A DNA stretch of 64,000 nucleotides from Myxococcales bacterium (GTDB taxonomy: Bacteria; Desulfobacterota; Binatia; HRBIN30): contig JBBILD010000001.1 in NCBI GenBank assembly GCA_037445065.1, forward strand, positions 56,716 through 120,715, read 5' to 3'. The notes under the pieces are model-generated. The model was not told the origin of the DNA. It saw only the letters and a list, made by a program, of their open reading frames with translations, and ran no database searches. Shown in pieces: positions 54,386 through 62,504 of the stretch; positions within the stretch are counted from its first letter, which is position 1; every line of letters begins with the position of its first letter. Made by a program: the position numbers and the translations under genes.

Positions 54386-55066
54386 TTAGTCTCGTCGTAG
54401 CTCGTCAATGCGATCCCTGTGTGCGACGAACACCCGATGAGCCAAGCCAAGAAACAAACCGGTGCCAACGACGCCTGGGATGGCGCGCAGTGCTTGTTCG
54501 ACTTCGTATGGGTTCGCTAGCGGCGGGACCGCACAATCCAGAATGTGATTATACCCGTCGCTCAGAAACGGCCCATCACCGTGGCTCCGCAAGACTGGGT
54601 CGAAGCCGAGTGCCCGAATCCGTCGCCGGCAGAACCCGAGAGCGAAGGGCAGGACCTCCACCGGCAGGCGCCCGCGCTGTCCTAACTGGGTAACGAGCTT
54701 TTCGGCGCCGACCAGAATGATCACTTCCCGTGAGGCCGAGGCGACAACCTTCTCACGCACAAGCGCGCCTCCGTAGCCCTTGATGAGGTTGAGCTGTGGG
54801 TCGACTTCATCCGCGCCGTCCACGGTAAGGTCAATCGCGTCCACCTCGTCCAGGCTGGTGAGCGGAAGCTTGAGCTGACGCGCTAGGGCAGCGGTTGCTT
54901 CGGACGTGGGTACACACCGCAACGTTTCCGTAAGGTGGTTGCATTCAGCCAAGGCACGGACAAAGGCGCTGGCTGCACGCCCAGTGCCTAAACCAATGGT
55001 CATCCCTGTACGCACGAAGCCGACTGCGCGGCGCGCCAGCAGATCGAGTTGGTCATTTTGCGACAT
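54386..55066 (-). CDS. rpiA: Ribose-5-phosphate isomerase A
   Basis: IGLGTG, VDGADEVD, KGYGGALVREK and GVVGTGLF. Start could be 55084. Confidence 0.95.
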   Translation of the reverse strand: MSQNDQLDLLARRAVGFVRTGMTIGLGTGRAASAFVRALAECNHLTETLRCVPTSEATAALARQLKLPLTSLDEVDAIDLTVDGADEVDPQLNLIKGYGGALVREKVVASASREVIILVGAEKLVTQLGQRGRLPVEVLPFALGFCRRRIRALGFDPVLRSHGDGPFLSDGYNHILDCAVPPLANPYEVEQALRAIPGVVGTGLFLGLAHRVFVAHRDRIDELRRD

Positions 55067-55080
55067 GTTTGCGCTGTTTG

Positions 55081-56292
55081 TCAAATGATCCCTGCCTCCC
55101 GCAAGGCGCGCCGCTGATCCTCGTCGAGGCCAAGAAGGCCTCCATAGACCTCGTCGTTGTGTTCTCCTAAGCGCGGGGCACCGCTGCGGATCGCGCCCGG
55201 GCTTGCCGACAATCGCGGGTAGACACCTTGCATGCGGATGGGGCCTAGCACGGGGTCTTGGACAGTGACCAGGCTGCCTCGCGCGGCATAATGCGGGTCT
55301 GAAAAAATGTCTGCAATTGAGTAAATCCGCGAGACCGGGACTTGAGCTGCTACCAAGATTCGCTCGATTTCCCCGGCCGTGTGCTCACCGACCCACTGAC
55401 CGACGATCCGGTGGATCTCGTCCGCGTGTTCGACTCTAGCGGACAGGGTGGCAAAACGCGGATCCTCGGACAATTCTGGCCTGCCCATTGCACCCGCTAA
55501 GCGGCGGAACAATTCGTCACCGGCGGCGACAATGCAGATATACTGGCCGTCTTTCGTGCGCCAATTATCGAGCGGCGCGGAATTGGGCAAGCAATTCCCG
55601 GTTCGTTCGCGCACCTCTCCCAGCCGGTCGTACGCTGCAGCAGTGTATTCGAGCACGCGAAACACAGCCTCGTATAAGGCGGCATCAATGCATTGCCCAG
55701 GGCCTTGCCGGCAGTCGCGGTAATAAAGGGCGGTGACAATCGCGAACGCATTGAATACCCCAGTAAGGTAGTCCGCAATCAAGGTTCCCGGCCGCACCGG
55801 GGGGCGGTCCGGGAAGCCGGTAAGGTACAGGAGGCCGCCAAAGGCAATTGCAATGCGGTCGAGACCTGGTCTGGGGGCGTAAGGCCCATGCTGCCCGTAC
55901 ACGGAAACCCGTGCCAGGATCAAGCGAGGGTTGATTTGTCGTAACGTGTCGAAGTCGAGGTTCCACGACTCGAGGGTGCCGGGCTGAAAGTTTTCGACAA
56001 CGACGTCGGCGTGCGGAACTAATTGGCGGAACAATTCTTGCCCTTCAGGCCGGCGAAGGTCCAGCGTGATGGACTTCTTGCCGCGATTCTCCACCGCCCA
56101 CCAGAGAGAGTAACCACGTTCGAACGGGCCAATATGCCGCAAAAAATCACCACGGTCGGGGAGTTCGACTTTGATGACTTCCGCACCGAAGTCGGCGAGG
56201 AGGGTGGCGGCAAAGGGTGCGGCAATTCGGGTCCCGAGGTCCAAGATGCGGACGCCAGAAAGGGGACCTGGATTTTGTTCCCTCGCTTGCAT
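55081..56292 (-). CDS. Family III CoA-transferase (CaiB/BaiF)
   Basis: GPLSGVRILDL, DFGAEVIKVE, NRGKKSITLDL, ENFQPG and APRLGEH. Confidence 0.93.
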   Translation of the reverse strand: MQAREQNPGPLSGVRILDLGTRIAAPFAATLLADFGAEVIKVELPDRGDFLRHIGPFERGYSLWWAVENRGKKSITLDLRRPEGQELFRQLVPHADVVVENFQPGTLESWNLDFDTLRQINPRLILARVSVYGQHGPYAPRPGLDRIAIAFGGLLYLTGFPDRPPVRPGTLIADYLTGVFNAFAIVTALYYRDCRQGPGQCIDAALYEAVFRVLEYTAAAYDRLGEVRERTGNCLPNSAPLDNWRTKDGQYICIVAAGDELFRRLAGAMGRPELSEDPRFATLSARVEHADEIHRIVGQWVGEHTAGEIERILVAAQVPVSRIYSIADIFSDPHYAARGSLVTVQDPVLGPIRMQGVYPRLSASPGAIRSGAPRLGEHNDEVYGGLLGLDEDQRRALREAGII

Positions 56293-56381
56293 GCCGCGTT
56301 ACTGGCGCGAAGCGTGCGGCGCTGCAAGCCTGCCACCGCTCCTTGCGCTGGCCTCCAAGCGCGCCTTAGAATCGCGGTTCG

Positions 56382-58607
56382 ATGACGGCGGACCCGCAGT
56401 CGCCTGCCTTCGAGAGCGAGCTTTCGGATGACGAGCGCCGTCGCAGGCGGCGTGAGGCGTGGCTCATCCTGATCGGTCTCTTGCTCTTTGTTGTGCTGAC
56501 CTGGCTGACGGTGGCGCGGGCGCCGGAAGGGGGAGTTTTCGGCAACAGCACGTTTTCCTTCCTCCTCATCAATGTCAACCTGCTACTGCTGATTCTCCTT
56601 GTCTTCCTGGTGACTCGGAACTTGGTCAAACTCGTGGCGGAACGGCGGCGTGGAATTTTTGGGTCGCGCCTGCGCAGCCGCTTAGTGGCCGCGTTCCTGC
56701 TGATCACCCTGGGACCGAGTGTCCTCTTGTTCTTCGTGGCCCAAGGATTCTTGCAGGCCGTTTTCACTAGTTGGTTCAACGTTCGCGTAGAGTCCGCGCT
56801 TCGCAACTCGGTGCAGGTGTCTCAGAGTTACTACCAGTTCGCTGCGAATGGTGCGATTCACTTCGCTCGCGAACTGGCACGTGGATTGGGCGAACGCTGG
56901 TTACTGGAGTCGCGCGGGACCGAGATTGCTGGTTGGCTGGAAAGTAAACGAGCGGAGTACGGACTTGCGATGGTGGGGCTTTGGAACCAAGGGGGGAGCC
57001 CGCTGGCGATGGCGCGAGAGAAACAGATGCACAACGCTCCACTGGCAGATCCAGCCGCGATTCGGGAGGCTCTGGCCGGTGGAGAAGCGGCCGACACGAT
57101 GCGCTGGGGGAGGTCGGACGTGGTTTGGGTAGCCGTTCCGGTTCGCGACCCCGGAGGAGCGGTGGTTGCGGCTTTGGGAGTGGCATACTGGGTGCCGCGC
57201 AGCGTGAGCGAATTGACGCGGGCAATCGCCCGTTCATACGCGGAGTACCGACAGTTGGAGATTTTGCGCCAGCCGATCAAAAACAGTTACATACTCACAC
57301 TGGCACTCATTACGTTGGTGCTGATTTTTTCCGGAACCTGGTTCGGGATCCGGCAGGCGCGAAGAATCTCGAAGCCGTTGCTGGAACTCGCCGCTGGAAC
57401 TCGCGAGGTGGCACGGGGGAATTGGAGTTACCGGATCGAACCCCCGGGCGATCACGAGATTGCCTTGCTTGTCGAAGCGTTCAATCAAATGACGGCGGAG
57501 CTGGAGCAAACGAACCGGGAACTCGTGCAGCGCCGAACGTACGTGGAAAACCTCCTGGCGAACATTGGAGCAGGAGTGCTGTCGTTGGATTCCACCGGCG
57601 TGGTGACCACGGTCAACCCAGCGGCCGAGCGCTTGCTCGGAGTCGCAGCCAGCAGCGCACTGGGTAAGCATTGGGGTGCAGTGTTTGCTGGCAGCGGCTG
57701 GAGCAAGCTCCAGGAGATGGTGGCTGAGGCAACCGTAGAACCTAGGAGAGAAATCCAGCGACAGATGCAGCTGACCTCGTCGGGAGAGGGTCGGGTTGTG
57801 CTGGTCACAGCAACGCCTCTGGGGGAAGGAACGCAGGGTAGGCAAGGTCTGATGCTGTTTTTTGAGGATGTTACCCACCTCATGCGGGTACAGCGGATGG
57901 AGGCTTGGCGTGAGGTTGCGCGCCGCCTTGCACACGAAATCAAGAACCCGCTGACCCCGATTCAACTGTCCGCGCAACGGTTGGAGAAGCGGCTGCTGCC
58001 GCTCCTTTCACCCGAGGACCGCGCGATCGTCGAAGAGTGCACGGAAACGATTGTCCAGGAGGTTGAGCACCTGAAACGACTGGTTACGGAGTTCTCTCGG
58101 TTTGCGCGCTTGCCTGCAGTGCAGTTGGTGCCGAGCGACGTCAACGCATTGGTGGAAGACACGGTGCGTATGTTCCGCAGTGGACAGCCGAAGCTCGAGG
58201 TGCGTTTTTACCCAGGCTCGGGACTGCCACTGGTTGAGCTCGACCGCGACGCGATTAAGCGCGCGCTGTGGAATCTGCTCGATAACGCTGCCGCGGCAGT
58301 GGCGGAGGAAGCATCGCCCCGGGTTGAGGTGCGCACGGAATACCATCCCGACGCGGGCGCGGTTCGCATCGAGGTGGCCGACAATGGTTGTGGTATCCCC
58401 CGCGATGCGAAGGCGCGGTTGTTCGAGCCTTACTTTTCGACCAAGCCGGAAGGCACCGGGCTGGGACTTGCCATCGTGGCCTCGATCGCGGCGGAGCATC
58501 AGGCTTACGTGCACGTGACGGATAATCTTCCGAAGGGGGCGCGCTTTGTACTCGAATTTCCATTGCGATCCTTGAAAGCGCTGCGTCCTTCGGCTGTAGG
58601 AGCGTAG
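56382..58607 (+). CDS. ntrY: NtrY-like sensor histidine kinase (TM-HAMP-PAS-HisKA-HATPase)
   Basis: RRGIFGSRLRSRLV, HAMP (FNQMT), PAS, AWREVARRLAHEIKNPLTPIQLSAQRL and GTGLGL. Confidence 0.9.
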   Translation: MTADPQSPAFESELSDDERRRRRREAWLILIGLLLFVVLTWLTVARAPEGGVFGNSTFSFLLINVNLLLLILLVFLVTRNLVKLVAERRRGIFGSRLRSRLVAAFLLITLGPSVLLFFVAQGFLQAVFTSWFNVRVESALRNSVQVSQSYYQFAANGAIHFARELARGLGERWLLESRGTEIAGWLESKRAEYGLAMVGLWNQGGSPLAMAREKQMHNAPLADPAAIREALAGGEAADTMRWGRSDVVWVAVPVRDPGGAVVAALGVAYWVPRSVSELTRAIARSYAEYRQLEILRQPIKNSYILTLALITLVLIFSGTWFGIRQARRISKPLLELAAGTREVARGNWSYRIEPPGDHEIALLVEAFNQMTAELEQTNRELVQRRTYVENLLANIGAGVLSLDSTGVVTTVNPAAERLLGVAASSALGKHWGAVFAGSGWSKLQEMVAEATVEPRREIQRQMQLTSSGEGRVVLVTATPLGEGTQGRQGLMLFFEDVTHLMRVQRMEAWREVARRLAHEIKNPLTPIQLSAQRLEKRLLPLLSPEDRAIVEECTETIVQEVEHLKRLVTEFSRFARLPAVQLVPSDVNALVEDTVRMFRSGQPKLEVRFYPGSGLPLVELDRDAIKRALWNLLDNAAAAVAEEASPRVEVRTEYHPDAGAVRIEVADNGCGIPRDAKARLFEPYFSTKPEGTGLGLAIVASIAAEHQAYVHVTDNLPKGARFVLEFPLRSLKALRPSAVGA

Positions 58608-58735
58608 CCTTGGTGTTCTGGGTGAGTAAGAAAGGTGGGGCTACCGCTTGGGCGTTACGCTGCGAACCTTCGCTCGCCTGAGATTCCGGTGGCAGCAGCC
58701 GGAACCAGGTGCGAAAGTCGGTGGGAGGAGGAGCC

Positions 58736-60013
58736 GTGACAACAGTTTTGGTTGTGGATGACGAAGCTCACATCCGTTCCTCGCTGCGTGGAATTTTGTC
58801 GGAAGAAGGCATGCACGTGGTGGAGGCGGCGAACGGGCGAGAAGCCCTGGCTTTGCTCGAACAATGTAGGCCTGACCTGGTCGTGCTCGACGTCTGGATG
58901 CCCGAGGTAGATGGTCTAGAGTTCTTGCGCGCCATCCAGAACCGGGCCCAGGCGCCCGCGGTCTTGATGATTTCCGGCCATGGCAACATCGAGACCGCGG
59001 TCAAAGCCACACAACTGGGAGCCGTAGATTTTATCGAAAAGCCATTCTCGCTTGCGGGATTCCTGGGTGCGGTTGAACGCGCCCTGCGCCGCCAGCAGGT
59101 TCAAAACCAGCAGGATCCCCACCCTGCCTCCCCGCTCCCTACGAGTAGCCGCTCGGTGGAGGGGGTTGCTCCGCAAGTCCGTGGGCGTTTTCGGCAACGG
59201 ACGGTTGCGCGGAGCATGGTCGATACCGGAACGGGTTTGCATAGCGGAGTAAAAACAGGACTGATCTTACAGCCCATGCCGCCAGGTTCGGGGATCGTGT
59301 TCTCGAACCTTTCCGCCGAGACGCCCGTACCCGCTCATTTGGACTTCGTGGACTCCACAGGCTACGCCACCACATTGCATCGCGCCGGGGTGACCATCCG
59401 TACGGTCGAGCACTTACTGGCCGCGCTCCATGCGTACCGAGTCACGAACTTGTTCGTGAAAGTCCAAGGGGAAGTCCCGATTATGGACGGTTCTGCGCAG
59501 CGTTGGTGCGAGCTGATCGAGAGCGCTGGGGTGGAGGAGCAGGACGCTTGGGCCGAGGAATACGCGGTGCGCGAGGTCGTGGAGATAAGGCGCAGCGAGG
59601 AGGAGTGGATTCGGATCGAGCCCTTCGACAGACTCGCAGTGACGTACGTGCTCGAATATCCGCCACCCGTGGGCAGGCAAGAGTATTCCTTTGTGTTGCA
59701 GGACCCGCACAGTTTCCGGGAGCAGATTGCACCCGCGCGCACGTTCGGATTCGTGAAGGACATGAAGCTCTTAGCCTCGATGGGCTTAGCGTCCGGCGGC
59801 CGCTTAGATAACTGCATTCTGATCGACGACGAAAAAATCGTGAACACCACCTTGCGGTTCCCTGAAGAACTCGCTCGCCACAAGATCCTCGACATCTGTG
59901 GCGACATGTATTTGCTGGGCCGGCCGCTGCGCGGGAAGATCACTGCGAAAAGAACCGGTCACTCCGAAAACATCGCCTTACTTCGCAAGCTTCGCAGTCA
60001 GTTCGAGGGGTGA
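58736..60013 (+). CDS. lpxC: Response-regulator receiver domain fused to UDP-3-O-acyl-N-acetylglucosamine deacetylase LpxC
   Basis: REC: VVDDE, LDVWMPEVDG, ISGHG, FIEKPF. LpxC: GTGLHSG, TVEHLLAAL, EVPIMDGSA, APARTFGF, RHKILD, TGH. GGAGGAGG RBS before GTG 58736. Confidence 0.92.
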   Translation: MTTVLVVDDEAHIRSSLRGILSEEGMHVVEAANGREALALLEQCRPDLVVLDVWMPEVDGLEFLRAIQNRAQAPAVLMISGHGNIETAVKATQLGAVDFIEKPFSLAGFLGAVERALRRQQVQNQQDPHPASPLPTSSRSVEGVAPQVRGRFRQRTVARSMVDTGTGLHSGVKTGLILQPMPPGSGIVFSNLSAETPVPAHLDFVDSTGYATTLHRAGVTIRTVEHLLAALHAYRVTNLFVKVQGEVPIMDGSAQRWCELIESAGVEEQDAWAEEYAVREVVEIRRSEEEWIRIEPFDRLAVTYVLEYPPPVGRQEYSFVLQDPHSFREQIAPARTFGFVKDMKLLASMGLASGGRLDNCILIDDEKIVNTTLRFPEELARHKILDICGDMYLLGRPLRGKITAKRTGHSENIALLRKLRSQFEG

Positions 60014-60146
60014 GACAGGCGCTGGCCCCCCCTGTGCCGCCAGCGACAATGCATTCGTGTTCAGCAGCGAACGCTTCCCCTGCGAGGAGACACGCCGCCG
60101 GCCTGAACCAGACGCGAAAGGCGGGCGCGGAGAAGACTCGCGTGCT

Positions 60147-61298
60147 TCAACGTTGCACCACCGTGGCAGCAAGGCGATGACTGCGCCGGATTTCCCGGGC
60201 AACCCGCTGTGCTTGTTTGGGGCTCGGGAAATCTCCTACCGTCACCCGATACACGGCCTGGCGCTTGGATCGGCCCTGTTCGATTTTGGCGGGGTAGCCG
60301 GAGCGGTCGAGCGATTTTTGTACCCGCTCTGCGAGCGCATAGTCCCGAAAGTTGCCCAGACGCACTGCGTAGGCCGAGCGTTTCTGTGCGCTTCCCTGCC
60401 CTACTTCGTCACCCCCGCCGCGTGTGGTCTCGCCGCTCCCTGCCACTTGCAGAGTTTCAGGAAATACCTCCGGCCACGATTCACCTTCCAATGCTGCGGC
60501 CAGCAGGCGTTTGATATCCCCCCATAGATCAGTGGAGCCGAGCACTGCAAAACTGACGCTCCGCTCACCCGCCCAAGCTGCGCCGACGAAGCAGCGTTTT
60601 GCCGCCCGAGTCCACCCTGTTTTGCCCACAACTCGAAGGTGGTAGTCGCCGAGCAAGCGATTGTGATTGCGAAGCGCAATGCGTCGCATTGAGCCTGACG
60701 TCGGCCGGATCTCTCCCGTACGCGTGCTCACGATTGCTTCGAACAAAGGATGGCGGAGTGCATACCGGAAAATGACGGCCAAGTCCCGCGCACTCGATAC
60801 GTGCCGATCATCGGGCAACCCGTGAGGATTGACAAAGTGTGTGTTTCGCGCCCCCAATTTCCAGGCCAGCGCATTCATCCGTTCCGCGAAGGAAGCAACC
60901 GAGCCTGCCAACCCCTCGGCAATGACCACACTGGCGTCATTGGCCGAATTGAGCAGCACCGCGTAGACAAGATCCGCAAGCCGCAGGGTCATTCCCGGTT
61001 TGAGCCCCAGCTTTGAAGCCGGGGTCGCCGCAGCTTCTTTGGAAACCGGAAAGGACTCCTGCATACGTCCGCTCTGGATTGCCAGCAGGGCAGTGACCAC
61101 TTTCGTTGTGCTGGCGGGGGGTAGGGGCGTATCCGGCTCGTGTGCCCACAACACGGACCCGGTTGCGTTGTCCAGCACGATTGCGGCACGAGCCGTGAGC
61201 AGGCGGGGTGAGTTCCCTCCGTTCGCGGCTTCGACACCGGACGCACCCCACCCCGCAGCCCAAAACGCGATGACCGCCAAAAAACGCCATGTCCGCAC
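60147..61298 (-). CDS. D-alanyl-D-alanine carboxypeptidase (S11) with C-terminal SPOR domain
   Basis: PASTTK (SxxK), SAND (SxN), NPHGL and GKTG. C-terminal YAVRLGNF...YRVTVGDF SPOR domain. Confidence 0.9.
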   Translation of the reverse strand: MRTWRFLAVIAFWAAGWGASGVEAANGGNSPRLLTARAAIVLDNATGSVLWAHEPDTPLPPASTTKVVTALLAIQSGRMQESFPVSKEAAATPASKLGLKPGMTLRLADLVYAVLLNSANDASVVIAEGLAGSVASFAERMNALAWKLGARNTHFVNPHGLPDDRHVSSARDLAVIFRYALRHPLFEAIVSTRTGEIRPTSGSMRRIALRNHNRLLGDYHLRVVGKTGWTRAAKRCFVGAAWAGERSVSFAVLGSTDLWGDIKRLLAAALEGESWPEVFPETLQVAGSGETTRGGGDEVGQGSAQKRSAYAVRLGNFRDYALAERVQKSLDRSGYPAKIEQGRSKRQAVYRVTVGDFPSPKQAQRVAREIRRSHRLAATVVQR

Positions 61299-61400
61299 CT
61301 GCACCACCTCCTCAGCCGCGAGTTTCCTCCAACCCAACACACAGCATGCGCCAAGACACCCAGCGCTGTCAACGGAAAGTCAACAGGCGAATTCCTCCAG

Positions 61401-62504
61401 CTATTGAGCCCGCAGGTCTTCGTCAAGCCACGGCGCCGCTGGTGCAGCGTGTGTCAGCACCGAGCGGAACAGAAACACACTGAGAATGAGAGGCAGCACG
61501 TAGTACGCGACACGAAAAATCAGTACTGCAATGACCGCGACCTCGAATGGCACGCCCAATCCGGCAAAGATGGCGGCCATTGAGCCTTCCATGATTCCCA
61601 GACCACCCGGAATAAACGACACCAAGGACAAGACAATCCCAACTGCGAAGCCAACAATCACGAAACTGAAGGGTAAAGGATAACCCACGGCCAGAAACGC
61701 CGTGTGCAGGATGAGCAGAGTTGCCACCCAGTCTACCGCGATCCAGAAAATCGGCCCCAGCATGTGGGTCTTCCGTTCCATCAAGAACTCGATGCCGCGG
61801 TCTAGATTTCTTTGAAAACGCCAGATCCGAACACGCCGGAGTTTGAGCCGGGGGGCTACCCGGTGCACTAGCCAGTGCCCTACCTCGGCGAGCAAAAACA
61901 AGGTGCGCCGGCGCACGCGGCGGTGAATGAGTAAGAAAACGGCAATCAGGGACGCGATGGTGAAAACCGCGGTAAGCACGGCGCTGGTGATGAGTGTGAG
62001 GCCAGTGAGTTCGTGGGTTTTGAGCAGGTAGAAAAACCCGGCAAGCACGAACAGCAGCAACATCAGGTTGGTGATGAACGTTTGCACCAAGGAAATCGTC
62101 ACGGCTCGCCCAGACGGCACCTTGAGCCGCAGAAAGAAGTACATCCGCACGGCAAAACCGCTGAGCCCTCCACTCGTGATCAAGTGGTTGATGGTGTTTG
62201 CGACGAAGGTCACCTTGAGCATGTCCCAGAACGGGACCCAGTACCCGGCAGCGCGCGCAATGTCTTGATAGGACCGGGCCATCGCCACATAACTCGCCAT
62301 GGAGCACAGCACGGGTAAAAGCAGGCGGGAGGGGTGCACCTTTTGCGTCGTGCGCCAAAGCTCGCGTGCATCGGAAAACGCAAAAAGAGCCACCAAAGCC
62401 GCGAGGCCGAAAACCAGCAGCCAGGAAAGCCACTGTGGCCGCCGCAATAGGCGCTGGGCGAGAGGATCCGCCGCCGCAACCTCGGCATTGGAGTTTTTTG
62501 CCAT
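61401..62504 (-). CDS. Lysylphosphatidylglycerol synthase TM / flippase-like membrane protein (UPF0104)
   Basis: Multi-TM, SGGLSG, PGGLGIMEG and IFRVAYYVLP. Confidence 0.85.
   Translation of the reverse strand: MAKNSNAEVAAADPLAQRLLRRPQWLSWLLVFGLAALVALFAFSDARELWRTTQKVHPSRLLLPVLCSMASYVAMARSYQDIARAAGYWVPFWDMLKVTFVANTINHLITSGGLSGFAVRMYFFLRLKVPSGRAVTISLVQTFITNLMLLLFVLAGFFYLLKTHELTGLTLITSAVLTAVFTIASLIAVFLLIHRRVRRRTLFLLAEVGHWLVHRVAPRLKLRRVRIWRFQRNLDRGIEFLMERKTHMLGPIFWIAVDWVATLLILHTAFLAVGYPLPFSFVIVGFAVGIVLSLVSFIPGGLGIMEGSMAAIFAGLGVPFEVAVIAVLIFRVAYYVLPLILSVFLFRSVLTHAAPAAPWLDEDLRAQ

Follow-up and report, generated by a model that had tools for sequence, protein, structure and literature searches.

An NtrY-like kinase followed by a receiver-LpxC fusion: a candidate two-component control of lipid A synthesis

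Introduction

In a 64,000-nucleotide stretch of DNA from an uncultured organism deposited as Myxococcales bacterium (GTDB lineage Bacteria; Desulfobacterota; Binatia; HRBIN30; GenBank assembly GCA_037445065.1, contig JBBILD010000001.1, positions 56,716 to 120,715 of the forward strand), a gene for an NtrY-like membrane histidine kinase is followed by a gene in which a response regulator receiver domain is joined in frame to the deacetylase LpxC. We consider it fairly probable that these two proteins form a two-component system in which the enzyme takes the part of the response regulator. The whole stretch is referred to here as the window, and positions are counted from its first letter. LpxC catalyzes the committed step in the synthesis of lipid A, and the controls known to act on it are proteolysis and, in a small number of species, transcription. 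If the proposed reading is correct, a receiver fused to the enzyme would add a third and much more direct logic to these two, by which a signaling kinase would switch outer-membrane synthesis directly. Such a system would also be convenient for experiments, as a single aspartate could be mutated and a single kinase stimulated.

The Kinase Gene and the Receiver-LpxC Fusion

An initial annotation, made from the letters of the window and a list of its open reading frames (ORFs), had described a kinase gene and then a receiver-LpxC gene on the same strand, the latter at the place usually taken by ntrX behind ntrY. Both points were borne out, as the locus consists of two ORFs on the forward strand with the fusion starting 128 nucleotides behind a kinase of the NtrY type. 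Its features are as follows, with the evidence in brackets (REC, receiver domain; aa, amino acids; pLDDT, predicted local distance difference test).

56382..58607, forward strand: NtrY-like membrane sensor histidine kinase, 741 aa (Pfam, hydropathy scan)
56460..56840, forward strand: NtrY_N region of the kinase, residues 27-153 (Pfam)
57906..58568, forward strand: kinase core, HisKA at residues 509-577 and HATPase_c at residues 621-729 (Pfam)
58608..58735, forward strand: 128-nucleotide spacer from the stop codon of the kinase gene to the start of the fusion, holding the ribosome-binding site GGGAGGAGGAG at 58723-58733
58736..60013, forward strand: REC-LpxC fusion gene, 425 aa from the probable start GTG 58736 (Pfam, NCBIfam, alignment, ribosome-binding site)
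58745..59065, forward strand: receiver domain, residues 13-119 of the 434-aa ORF, with the codon of the predicted phospho-acceptor D61 at 58889-58891 (Pfam)
59111..59188, forward strand: Q/P/S-rich linker, residues 135-160 (alignment, AlphaFold2 pLDDT)
59195..59992, forward strand: LpxC deacetylase domain, residues 163-428 (Pfam, NCBIfam, alignment)

In the ORF list, the longest frame of the fusion gene is 58709..60013, which begins at GTG 58709 and encodes 434 aa; residue numbers refer to this form unless stated otherwise. Translation probably begins at GTG 58736, nine codons into this frame, because the strong ribosome-binding site of the spacer lies 2 nucleotides upstream of it, relatives begin there, and a 98%-identical database copy is 425 aa long. 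The spacer and its surroundings gave no Rfam match across 55000-62000 at E values up to 0.1, no significant terminator was detected in the spacer (3 terminator-like sites versus 4.8 expected from shuffles), and a scan of the locus found no sigma70-like promoter sites.

Both halves of the fusion look functional, judging from profiles, residues and modeled fold. Response_reg (Pfam PF00072) matches residues 13-119 with 112 bits against a cut-off of 30.2, LpxC (PF03331) matches residues 163-428 with 288 bits over profile positions 1-266 of 268, and the NCBIfam model TIGR00325 (lpxC) scores 257.2 bits with a cut-off of 187.25. All motifs named in the initial annotation are present in the translation, i.e., VVDDE, LDVWMP, SGHG and EKPF, the Q/P/S-rich linker, and VEH, HKILD and TGH. 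Across 31 aligned fused proteins, which are 37-78% identical overall to the window protein, the receiver residues D17, D18, D61, S89, F108 and K111 are invariant, as are E234, H235, H391, K392, D395, D399 and H418 of the LpxC part, with T345 nearly so. D17, D18, D61, S89 and K111 presumably correspond to D12, D13, D57, T87 and K109 of CheY. On the enzyme side, H235, H391, D395, E234, H418, T345, K392 and D399 align with H78, H237, D241, E77, H264, T190, K238 and D245 of Pseudomonas aeruginosa LpxC, an alignment that upholds the claimed retention of the EH and HKxxD motifs and of the catalytic histidine in GH; we take these residues to be the zinc ligands (His, His, Asp), the catalytic Glu/His pair and the active-site Thr, Lys and Asp, respectively. 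By profile, residues and modeled fold the protein classifies as an LpxC, with predicted deacetylase activity, and by profile score and phosphorylation residues its N-terminal part classifies as a receiver.

AlphaFold2 models the chain as two well-folded domains (mean pLDDT 87.3) separated by a linker predicted to be disordered, with pLDDT below 50 at residues 137-157. In the LpxC domain pLDDT is mostly 84-97, with a dip to 55-61 around residues 351-370, and a Foldseek search matched the modeled LpxC part to Aquifex aeolicus LpxC with a target-normalized template modeling (TM) score of 0.94 and a root-mean-square deviation of 1.7-1.8 Å; the same search returned no solved structure spanning both domains. 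The predicted TM score (pTM) of 0.85 for the whole two-domain chain is a hint of defined packing between the domains. In the model the helix at residues 115-134 is long, and the linker of about 25 residues varies among relatives in both length and sequence. At the other end, the chain stops only a few residues from the last LpxC helix, and its alignment reaches no further than about position 277-280 of the P. aeruginosa chains, which have about 300 residues. A complex prediction in which the receiver (1-127) and LpxC (150-425, both in numbering of the 425-aa form) were entered as separate chains with a 48-row alignment each gave a score of 0.01 and a mark of 0.32, values that come without controls and are uninformative either way.

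The receiver is of the NtrX kind. Its closest solved relatives are the receivers of NtrC4 and of Brucella NtrX, and NtrX is its top NCBIfam response-regulator family, with 119.8 bits from the receiver part only. This profile (NF051870) has a cut-off of 600 bits and is matched only at positions 3-127 of 452, so the fusion falls far below the threshold and is not an NtrX; Pfam found neither an AAA+ nor a helix-turn-helix (HTH) domain in it. The fusion appears from these comparisons to be a descendant of the NtrX family and not a member of it.

The assignment of the kinase as NtrY-like held up as well, on the domain order NtrY_N, HAMP, PAS, HisKA and HATPase_c. NtrY_N scores 31.6 bits (cut-off 23.2) at residues 27-153 and covers only profile positions 6-132 of 291. 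A hydropathy scan gave four hydrophobic segments (about 26-44, 60-78, 101-128 and 304-322), the third and fourth of which are separated by a loop of about 175 residues, and the H-box reads HEIKNPL with the histidine at position 518. The kinase is the only NtrY_N protein of the window genome, and among 14 control genomes NtrY_N was found only in Caulobacter. No NtrY model is among the 25 NCBIfam families shown for this protein; the best of these are LIC_11548 (261.3 bits versus 750) and AtoS (234.7 versus 646), both below their cut-offs.

Authenticity of the Fusion and Its Place in the Genome

Since a fusion of this kind could arise from an assembly chimera, or from a frameshift that merges a truncated ntrX with lpxC, read coverage over the junction had been named at the outset as a point to verify, and a chimera or a fusion unique to this contig as what would count against the proposal. 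An independent contig settles the first point: record 7 of run X3, a contig of 79,285 bases from another sample, spans 58300-60100 with 19 substitutions, and its only indels relative to the window, at 58647 and 60026, both miss the coding region. Positions 58965-59463 are bridged in addition by record 2 of run X2; runs X5 and X6 cover the stretch in parts only, and their gaps carry no weight. Related genomes speak to the second point, as 28 of 30 genomes of the same order carry a full-length fused match and the best 120 homologues listed all contain both Pfam domains, those with names being mostly 'Candidatus Binatia'. A variant of the artefact explanation, in which an internal start would yield a free and working LpxC, is countered by the alignment, where no conserved Met or Val occurs in the columns ahead of the LpxC domain. 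Nothing was found in favor of an artefact, which is already contradicted by these data and which we regard as extremely improbable. The two remaining genomes of the order (G026 and G028, 94% and 97% complete) yielded no LpxC of any kind; they consist of 400 and 430 contigs, so this absence is likely an assembly gap.

Two further points for verification were whether the genome encodes a stand-alone lpxC or ntrX; neither a second LpxC nor an NtrX above the family cut-off is present. The window genome (3.79 Mb, 97.7% complete) contains a single LpxC match, the fused one, together with LpxB, and the enzyme is therefore without a bypass. In the relatives G008 and G020, which are assembled in 4 and 6 contigs, respectively, the fused LpxC is again the only one. 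Concerning ntrX, sigma54-type AAA+ matches number 17, of which 12 are strong, and none reaches the NtrX family cut-off (best 402.6 bits versus 600). Receiver paralogues in the same genome are at most 42% identical to the receiver of the fusion (85 bits).

Proteins resembling LapB, which takes part in LpxC proteolysis in enterobacteria, were also looked at. The strongest match to Pfam Zn_ribbon_LapB in the window genome (G000:C7:169939-171420) was rejected as LapB, since by eye it combines a RadA/Sms-like zinc ribbon with a P-loop; the top match having this appearance, the model alone does not identify LapB, and it also matches Gram-positive control genomes. The second match (G000:C10:56747-58039), which like the first lies outside the window, has N-terminal hydrophobic segments, tetratricopeptide-like repeats and a C-terminal CxxC...CxxC zinc ribbon, i.e., a LapB-like architecture.

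Distribution and Genetic Linkage of the Fusion

The receiver-LpxC architecture was sought in other genomes and found in three phyla; the family is large. Of 151 sampled genomes of the window phylum, 139 have an LpxC-level match. These include 18, the window genome included, that align across the full fusion, six more with short fusions that have longer linkers (three of the six verified), and 11 in which the LpxC domain ends reading frames of 690-837 aa. Full-length fusions occur also in the phylum of a metagenome-assembled genome (MAG) labeled Nitrospirae (15 of 121 sampled genomes, 37-41% identity) and in that of a MAG labeled Pyrinomonadaceae, i.e., an Acidobacteriota-labeled phylum (9 of 121, 45-50% identity), where the fusion is the sole LpxC in all three genomes checked. 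Among the matches listed by a locus search over genome contigs are 80 loci, most of them with a plain LpxC; they include one fusion of full length, L046, and a single probable long form, L047, which has the kinase upstream.

Close to home, the fusion is firmly linked to the kinase, the orthologue of which adjoins it upstream in 9 of 9 loci of the same family and is adjacent in both loci from other families of the window class. Five genomes in which fusion and kinase are unlinked each contain exactly one full-length kinase orthologue (32-44% identity), and in none of them does a receiver gene lie within 1.5 kb of that kinase; the fusion is thus its only obvious output. The unfused state of the same linkage can also be recognized. 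Among 17 plain-LpxC loci, L037 (G032) and L039 (G051) carry lpxC, then the gene of an NtrY-like kinase, then that of an NtrX-like regulator, all on one strand, and in L021 (G064) plain lpxC is followed by the kinase, where the locus ends. The window receiver is 47-48% identical (105-119 bits) to the regulators of L037 and L039, and thus closer to them than to the paralogues of its own genome.

Downstream of the fusion, the window has a convergent gene whose product is a PBP5-like D-Ala-D-Ala carboxypeptidase carrying a SPOR domain at its C-terminus.

60147..61340, reverse strand: PBP5-like D-Ala-D-Ala carboxypeptidase with C-terminal SPOR domain

A PBP5-like carboxypeptidase gene lies in this orientation in 8 of the 9 same-family loci, the ninth being cut short, and constitutes a second envelope gene at the locus.

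Two observations made during these searches concern the assignment of individual sequences. Three proteins (P0055, P0082 and P0087) are 60-62% identical to the window protein and fall inside a tight 18-row clade of its relatives (98% support), although their public labels are Acidoferrales, Terriglobales and Margulisiibacteriota; they may come from mis-binned contigs. In four high-GC loci (L024 of G139, L045 of G172, L008 and L010) the frame of the fusion continues without a stop for 1000-1400 codons in the upstream direction. The resulting candidates for kinase-regulator-enzyme triple fusions were rejected as chance open frames, because Pfam is empty in the extra 870 residues of L024.

Long Forms and the Origin of the Fusion

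The reading frames of several hundred residues that end in LpxC proved informative about where the fusion may come from. Five of them were scanned (L012-L016, from G036, G075, G065, G137 and G110), and all consist of REC, Sigma54_activat, AAA_lid_14 and LpxC; together with proteins P0121-P0240 these long forms measure about 680-800 aa. The best 120 hits of one long form contain LpxC, Sigma54_activat and AAA_lid_14 without exception, with REC in 119, and many such relatives are annotated 'NtrX' by JGI. HTH_8 could be recognized in 8 of the 33 long and intermediate forms that were aligned, and the long-form consensus shows a conserved Fis-type pattern ahead of LpxC. Walker A is mostly kept, while GAFTGA is absent and the DE of Walker B non-canonical in 30 of 30 long forms; NtrX, too, is not known to carry GAFTGA or a canonical Walker B. 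The long forms thus appear by their domains to be a whole NtrX-like regulator fused to LpxC, with a module of about 300 residues between receiver and enzyme, and they may both bind DNA and catalyze the step they regulate. Their LpxC part is 52-61% identical to that of the window protein (33-45% for plain LpxC) and their receiver 38-43% identical to the window receiver. Intermediate forms exist as well: P0245 (491 aa) is REC-HTH_8-LpxC, in which only the AAA+ is lost, and P0249 (505 aa) and P0269 (483 aa) have long linkers without a Pfam match.

A tree of 128 LpxC domains was built with a quick IQ-TREE run (unrooted, with Shimodaira-Hasegawa-like approximate likelihood ratio test (SH-aLRT) support only); candidates with a domain coverage below 88% were left out. 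Plain LpxC were represented by 38 of 87 sequences, a number counted after four N-terminally extended candidates had been relabeled; 17 of them came from the loci, 7 were chosen by hand and 14 at random. A branch with 98% SH-aLRT support separates all 93 rows of the fused clade from 35 plain LpxC. Three short 'plain' rows (289-292 aa) group within the fused clade and may represent truncated gene calls. Within the fused clade short and long forms are interleaved, with 14 changes each, at least 6-7 of which are forced by well-supported branches. P0245 pairs with a long form at 100% support, and the 22 rows of the window clade have a long form as their sister at 91% support. This tree would be read most simply as a single origin, after which the middle module was lost repeatedly.

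An NtrX-type regulator, with its receiver, degenerate AAA+ and Fis-type HTH, would accordingly have been fused to LpxC and then have lost AAA+ and HTH, and most likely regulatory control moved in this way from transcription to the enzyme itself. The forms can be arranged as a series that goes from separate lpxC, ntrY and ntrX to a whole regulator fused to the enzyme, then to loss of the AAA+, and finally to receiver and enzyme only, which would make them a rare traceable case of regulation shifting from a promoter onto a protein.

Proposed Mechanism and Its Alternatives

In the mechanism that we propose, the NtrY-like membrane kinase would sense an envelope or periplasmic cue via its loop of about 175 residues, and its PAS domain would perhaps read a cytoplasmic cue. 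The kinase would then phosphorylate D61 of the receiver, which the flexible linker tethers to the only LpxC of the cell, and the phosphorylation state would set the level of LpxC activity, and hence the flux into lipid A, post-translationally. CheB provides a precedent for how this could operate, as its unphosphorylated receiver restrains the esterase. By analogy, one state of the receiver would restrain the catalytic domain and the other would release it. This is the most likely sub-mechanism: intramolecular inhibition and release is favored because of the CheB-like layout and of the whole-chain pTM noted above. Phosphorylation-dependent dimerization via an NtrC-type receiver would be a real alternative within the same scheme, because of the long helix at the end of the modeled receiver. 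The initial annotation had proposed direct phosphorylation-dependent control of LpxC activity or stability. The structural and evolutionary parts of this interpretation stand, with the only NtrY_N kinase of the genome, a receiver best matched by NtrX, no second LpxC, and long NtrX-like-LpxC relatives; as to its biochemical part, we infer both the phosphotransfer from the window kinase to the receiver and the effect of phosphorylation on LpxC activity or stability, including the sign of that effect.

A number of observations weigh against this mechanism or narrow its reach. The expected linkage to ntrY in other genomes was found in the window class and in some long forms (the same kinase type lies upstream in 3 of 5 long-form loci), but it does not extend to the short forms of other classes (kinase adjacent in 0 of 11 loci) or to the two other phyla (0 of 10), so that outside the window class the pairing of kinase and fusion is one of co-occurrence. 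The fusion moreover stands beside a plain LpxC in all three genomes checked of the Nitrospirae-labeled phylum (G181, G253 and G189), and both are likewise present in G064 of the window phylum. Because of this coexistence, the fusion is not the sole route to lipid A in these genomes, where it may have a specialized or conditional role; in G253, G189 and G064 the plain LpxC scores 354-369 bits with PF03331 and the fusion 249-254 bits. With respect to the protein itself, the two domains need not share a fixed interface, because the linker is disordered in the model and variable among relatives. The protein encoded at G000:C10:56747-58039 is a distant LapB-like protein (31.4 bits with NCBIfam LapB, cut-off 430), and LapB-type control of LpxC would therefore still be conceivable in the window genome. 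Finally, the direction of the evolutionary series, i.e., long form first and then loss, is no more than the more plausible of the two, because the tree is quick and unrooted and does not resolve the deepest fused branches.

The most serious competitor, which we nonetheless judge unlikely, is phosphorylation-dependent turnover, in which the receiver would act as a switchable degradation signal or as the dock of an adaptor, and the kinase would set the abundance of LpxC via a protease instead of its catalytic rate. Proteolysis is the best-known control of LpxC, exerted by FtsH/LapB/YejM in enterobacteria and, as suggested in a 2025 review, by Lon in alphaproteobacteria (PMC12444477). The fused protein is without an extended C-terminal tail usable as a degron, so that its turnover would need another handle, which the receiver could provide, and the distant LapB-like protein is encoded in the genome. 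However, there is no sign of a protease or adaptor in the sequence and no protease gene linked to the fusion in the window, and the order of receiver, linker and enzyme is likewise found in regulators with a direct action on their own enzyme. A second competitor treats the fusion as a relic without coupling, a 'Rosetta stone' fusion whose receiver neither activates nor inhibits LpxC and serves at most as a phosphate sink for the kinase. The disordered and variable linker and the several lineages without an adjacent kinase would fit such a relic, but the phosphorylation residues are all invariant across the divergent proteins of the alignment, the architecture persists in three phyla, a useless appendage of 130 residues ought to decay or vanish from an essential enzyme, and the kinase is an orphan without another adjacent receiver in each of the five genomes examined for it. 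This makes a relic still less probable than turnover, and control of the enzyme by its own receiver is the reading that we prefer.

Taken together with what is known of NtrYX, the data allow a broader proposal, to which we are attached only tentatively, as it falls somewhat short of being probable. NtrYX-type systems would at root be a dedicated lipid A homeostat, and in at least three phyla the circuit would have been shortened until the regulator became LpxC. An envelope signal would then set, via the kinase, the flux through the committed step within seconds and without transcription or proteolysis, and the long forms would bind DNA as well as catalyze.

Comparison With Known Systems

A literature search found no paper describing a receiver-LpxC fusion, subscription journals and supplementary files being outside its reach, and the words 'receiver' and 'fusion' are absent from the available part of the 2025 review on lipid A regulation (PMC12444477). 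The long NtrX-like-LpxC forms are uncharacterized. What was already known is that NtrYX and an NtrC-type regulator of Desulfovibrio act on lpxC transcription.

Among the closest known systems is the NtrY/NtrX system of alphaproteobacteria (e.g., Rhodobacter sphaeroides, Caulobacter crescentus and Brucella), which shares its kinase architecture with the window kinase, and of which NtrX is the best regulator family for the window receiver and Brucella NtrX one of its closest solved structures. Connections of this system to lpxC and the cell envelope have been reported: NtrYX is said to act as an inhibitor of lpxC transcription, both in R. sphaeroides and in C. crescentus (PMC12444477), and lpxC transcripts are up 8.8-fold in R. 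sphaeroides without ntrYX, apparently indirectly (PMC7240162). NtrX differs, however, in being a DNA-binding protein with dozens of targets that acts indirectly on lpxC in R. sphaeroides, whereas the window protein is without AAA+ and HTH and carries the enzyme. A second known case is that of Desulfovibrio vulgaris, in which the NtrC-type regulator DVU2934, encoded with the kinase DVU2931, has lpxC as its single target, and in Syntrophobacter fumaroxidans lpxC lies directly upstream of an orthologous operon of the DVU2931/DVU2934 type (PMC3333781). The order of lpxC, NtrY-like kinase and NtrX-like regulator is matched in L037 and L039; here, too, there is a difference, since DVU2931/DVU2934 exert transcriptional control and are separate genes, and the comparison is one of description and gene order, not of sequence. 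The series of forms described above suggests that the link between NtrYX and the envelope in proteobacteria centers on LpxC.

Between these transcriptional systems and the window protein stand the REC-AAA+-HTH-LpxC fusions, which share with it the LpxC clade, the receiver type and, in the loci mentioned above, the upstream kinase, but keep the AAA+/HTH module of about 300 residues and may bind DNA. The enterobacterial FtsH/LapB/YejM control is of another nature, being proteolytic and dependent on a C-terminal degron, whereas the fused LpxC ends right after its catalytic domain, and the window genome offers only the very distant LapB-like protein as a counterpart. In overall layout the fusion resembles enzymatic response regulators such as CheB, PleD/WspR and RpfG, in which an N-terminal receiver is likewise connected by a flexible linker to a C-terminal catalytic domain. 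Their output domains and pathways are unrelated to LpxC and lipid A, and the resemblance is thus one of logic only.

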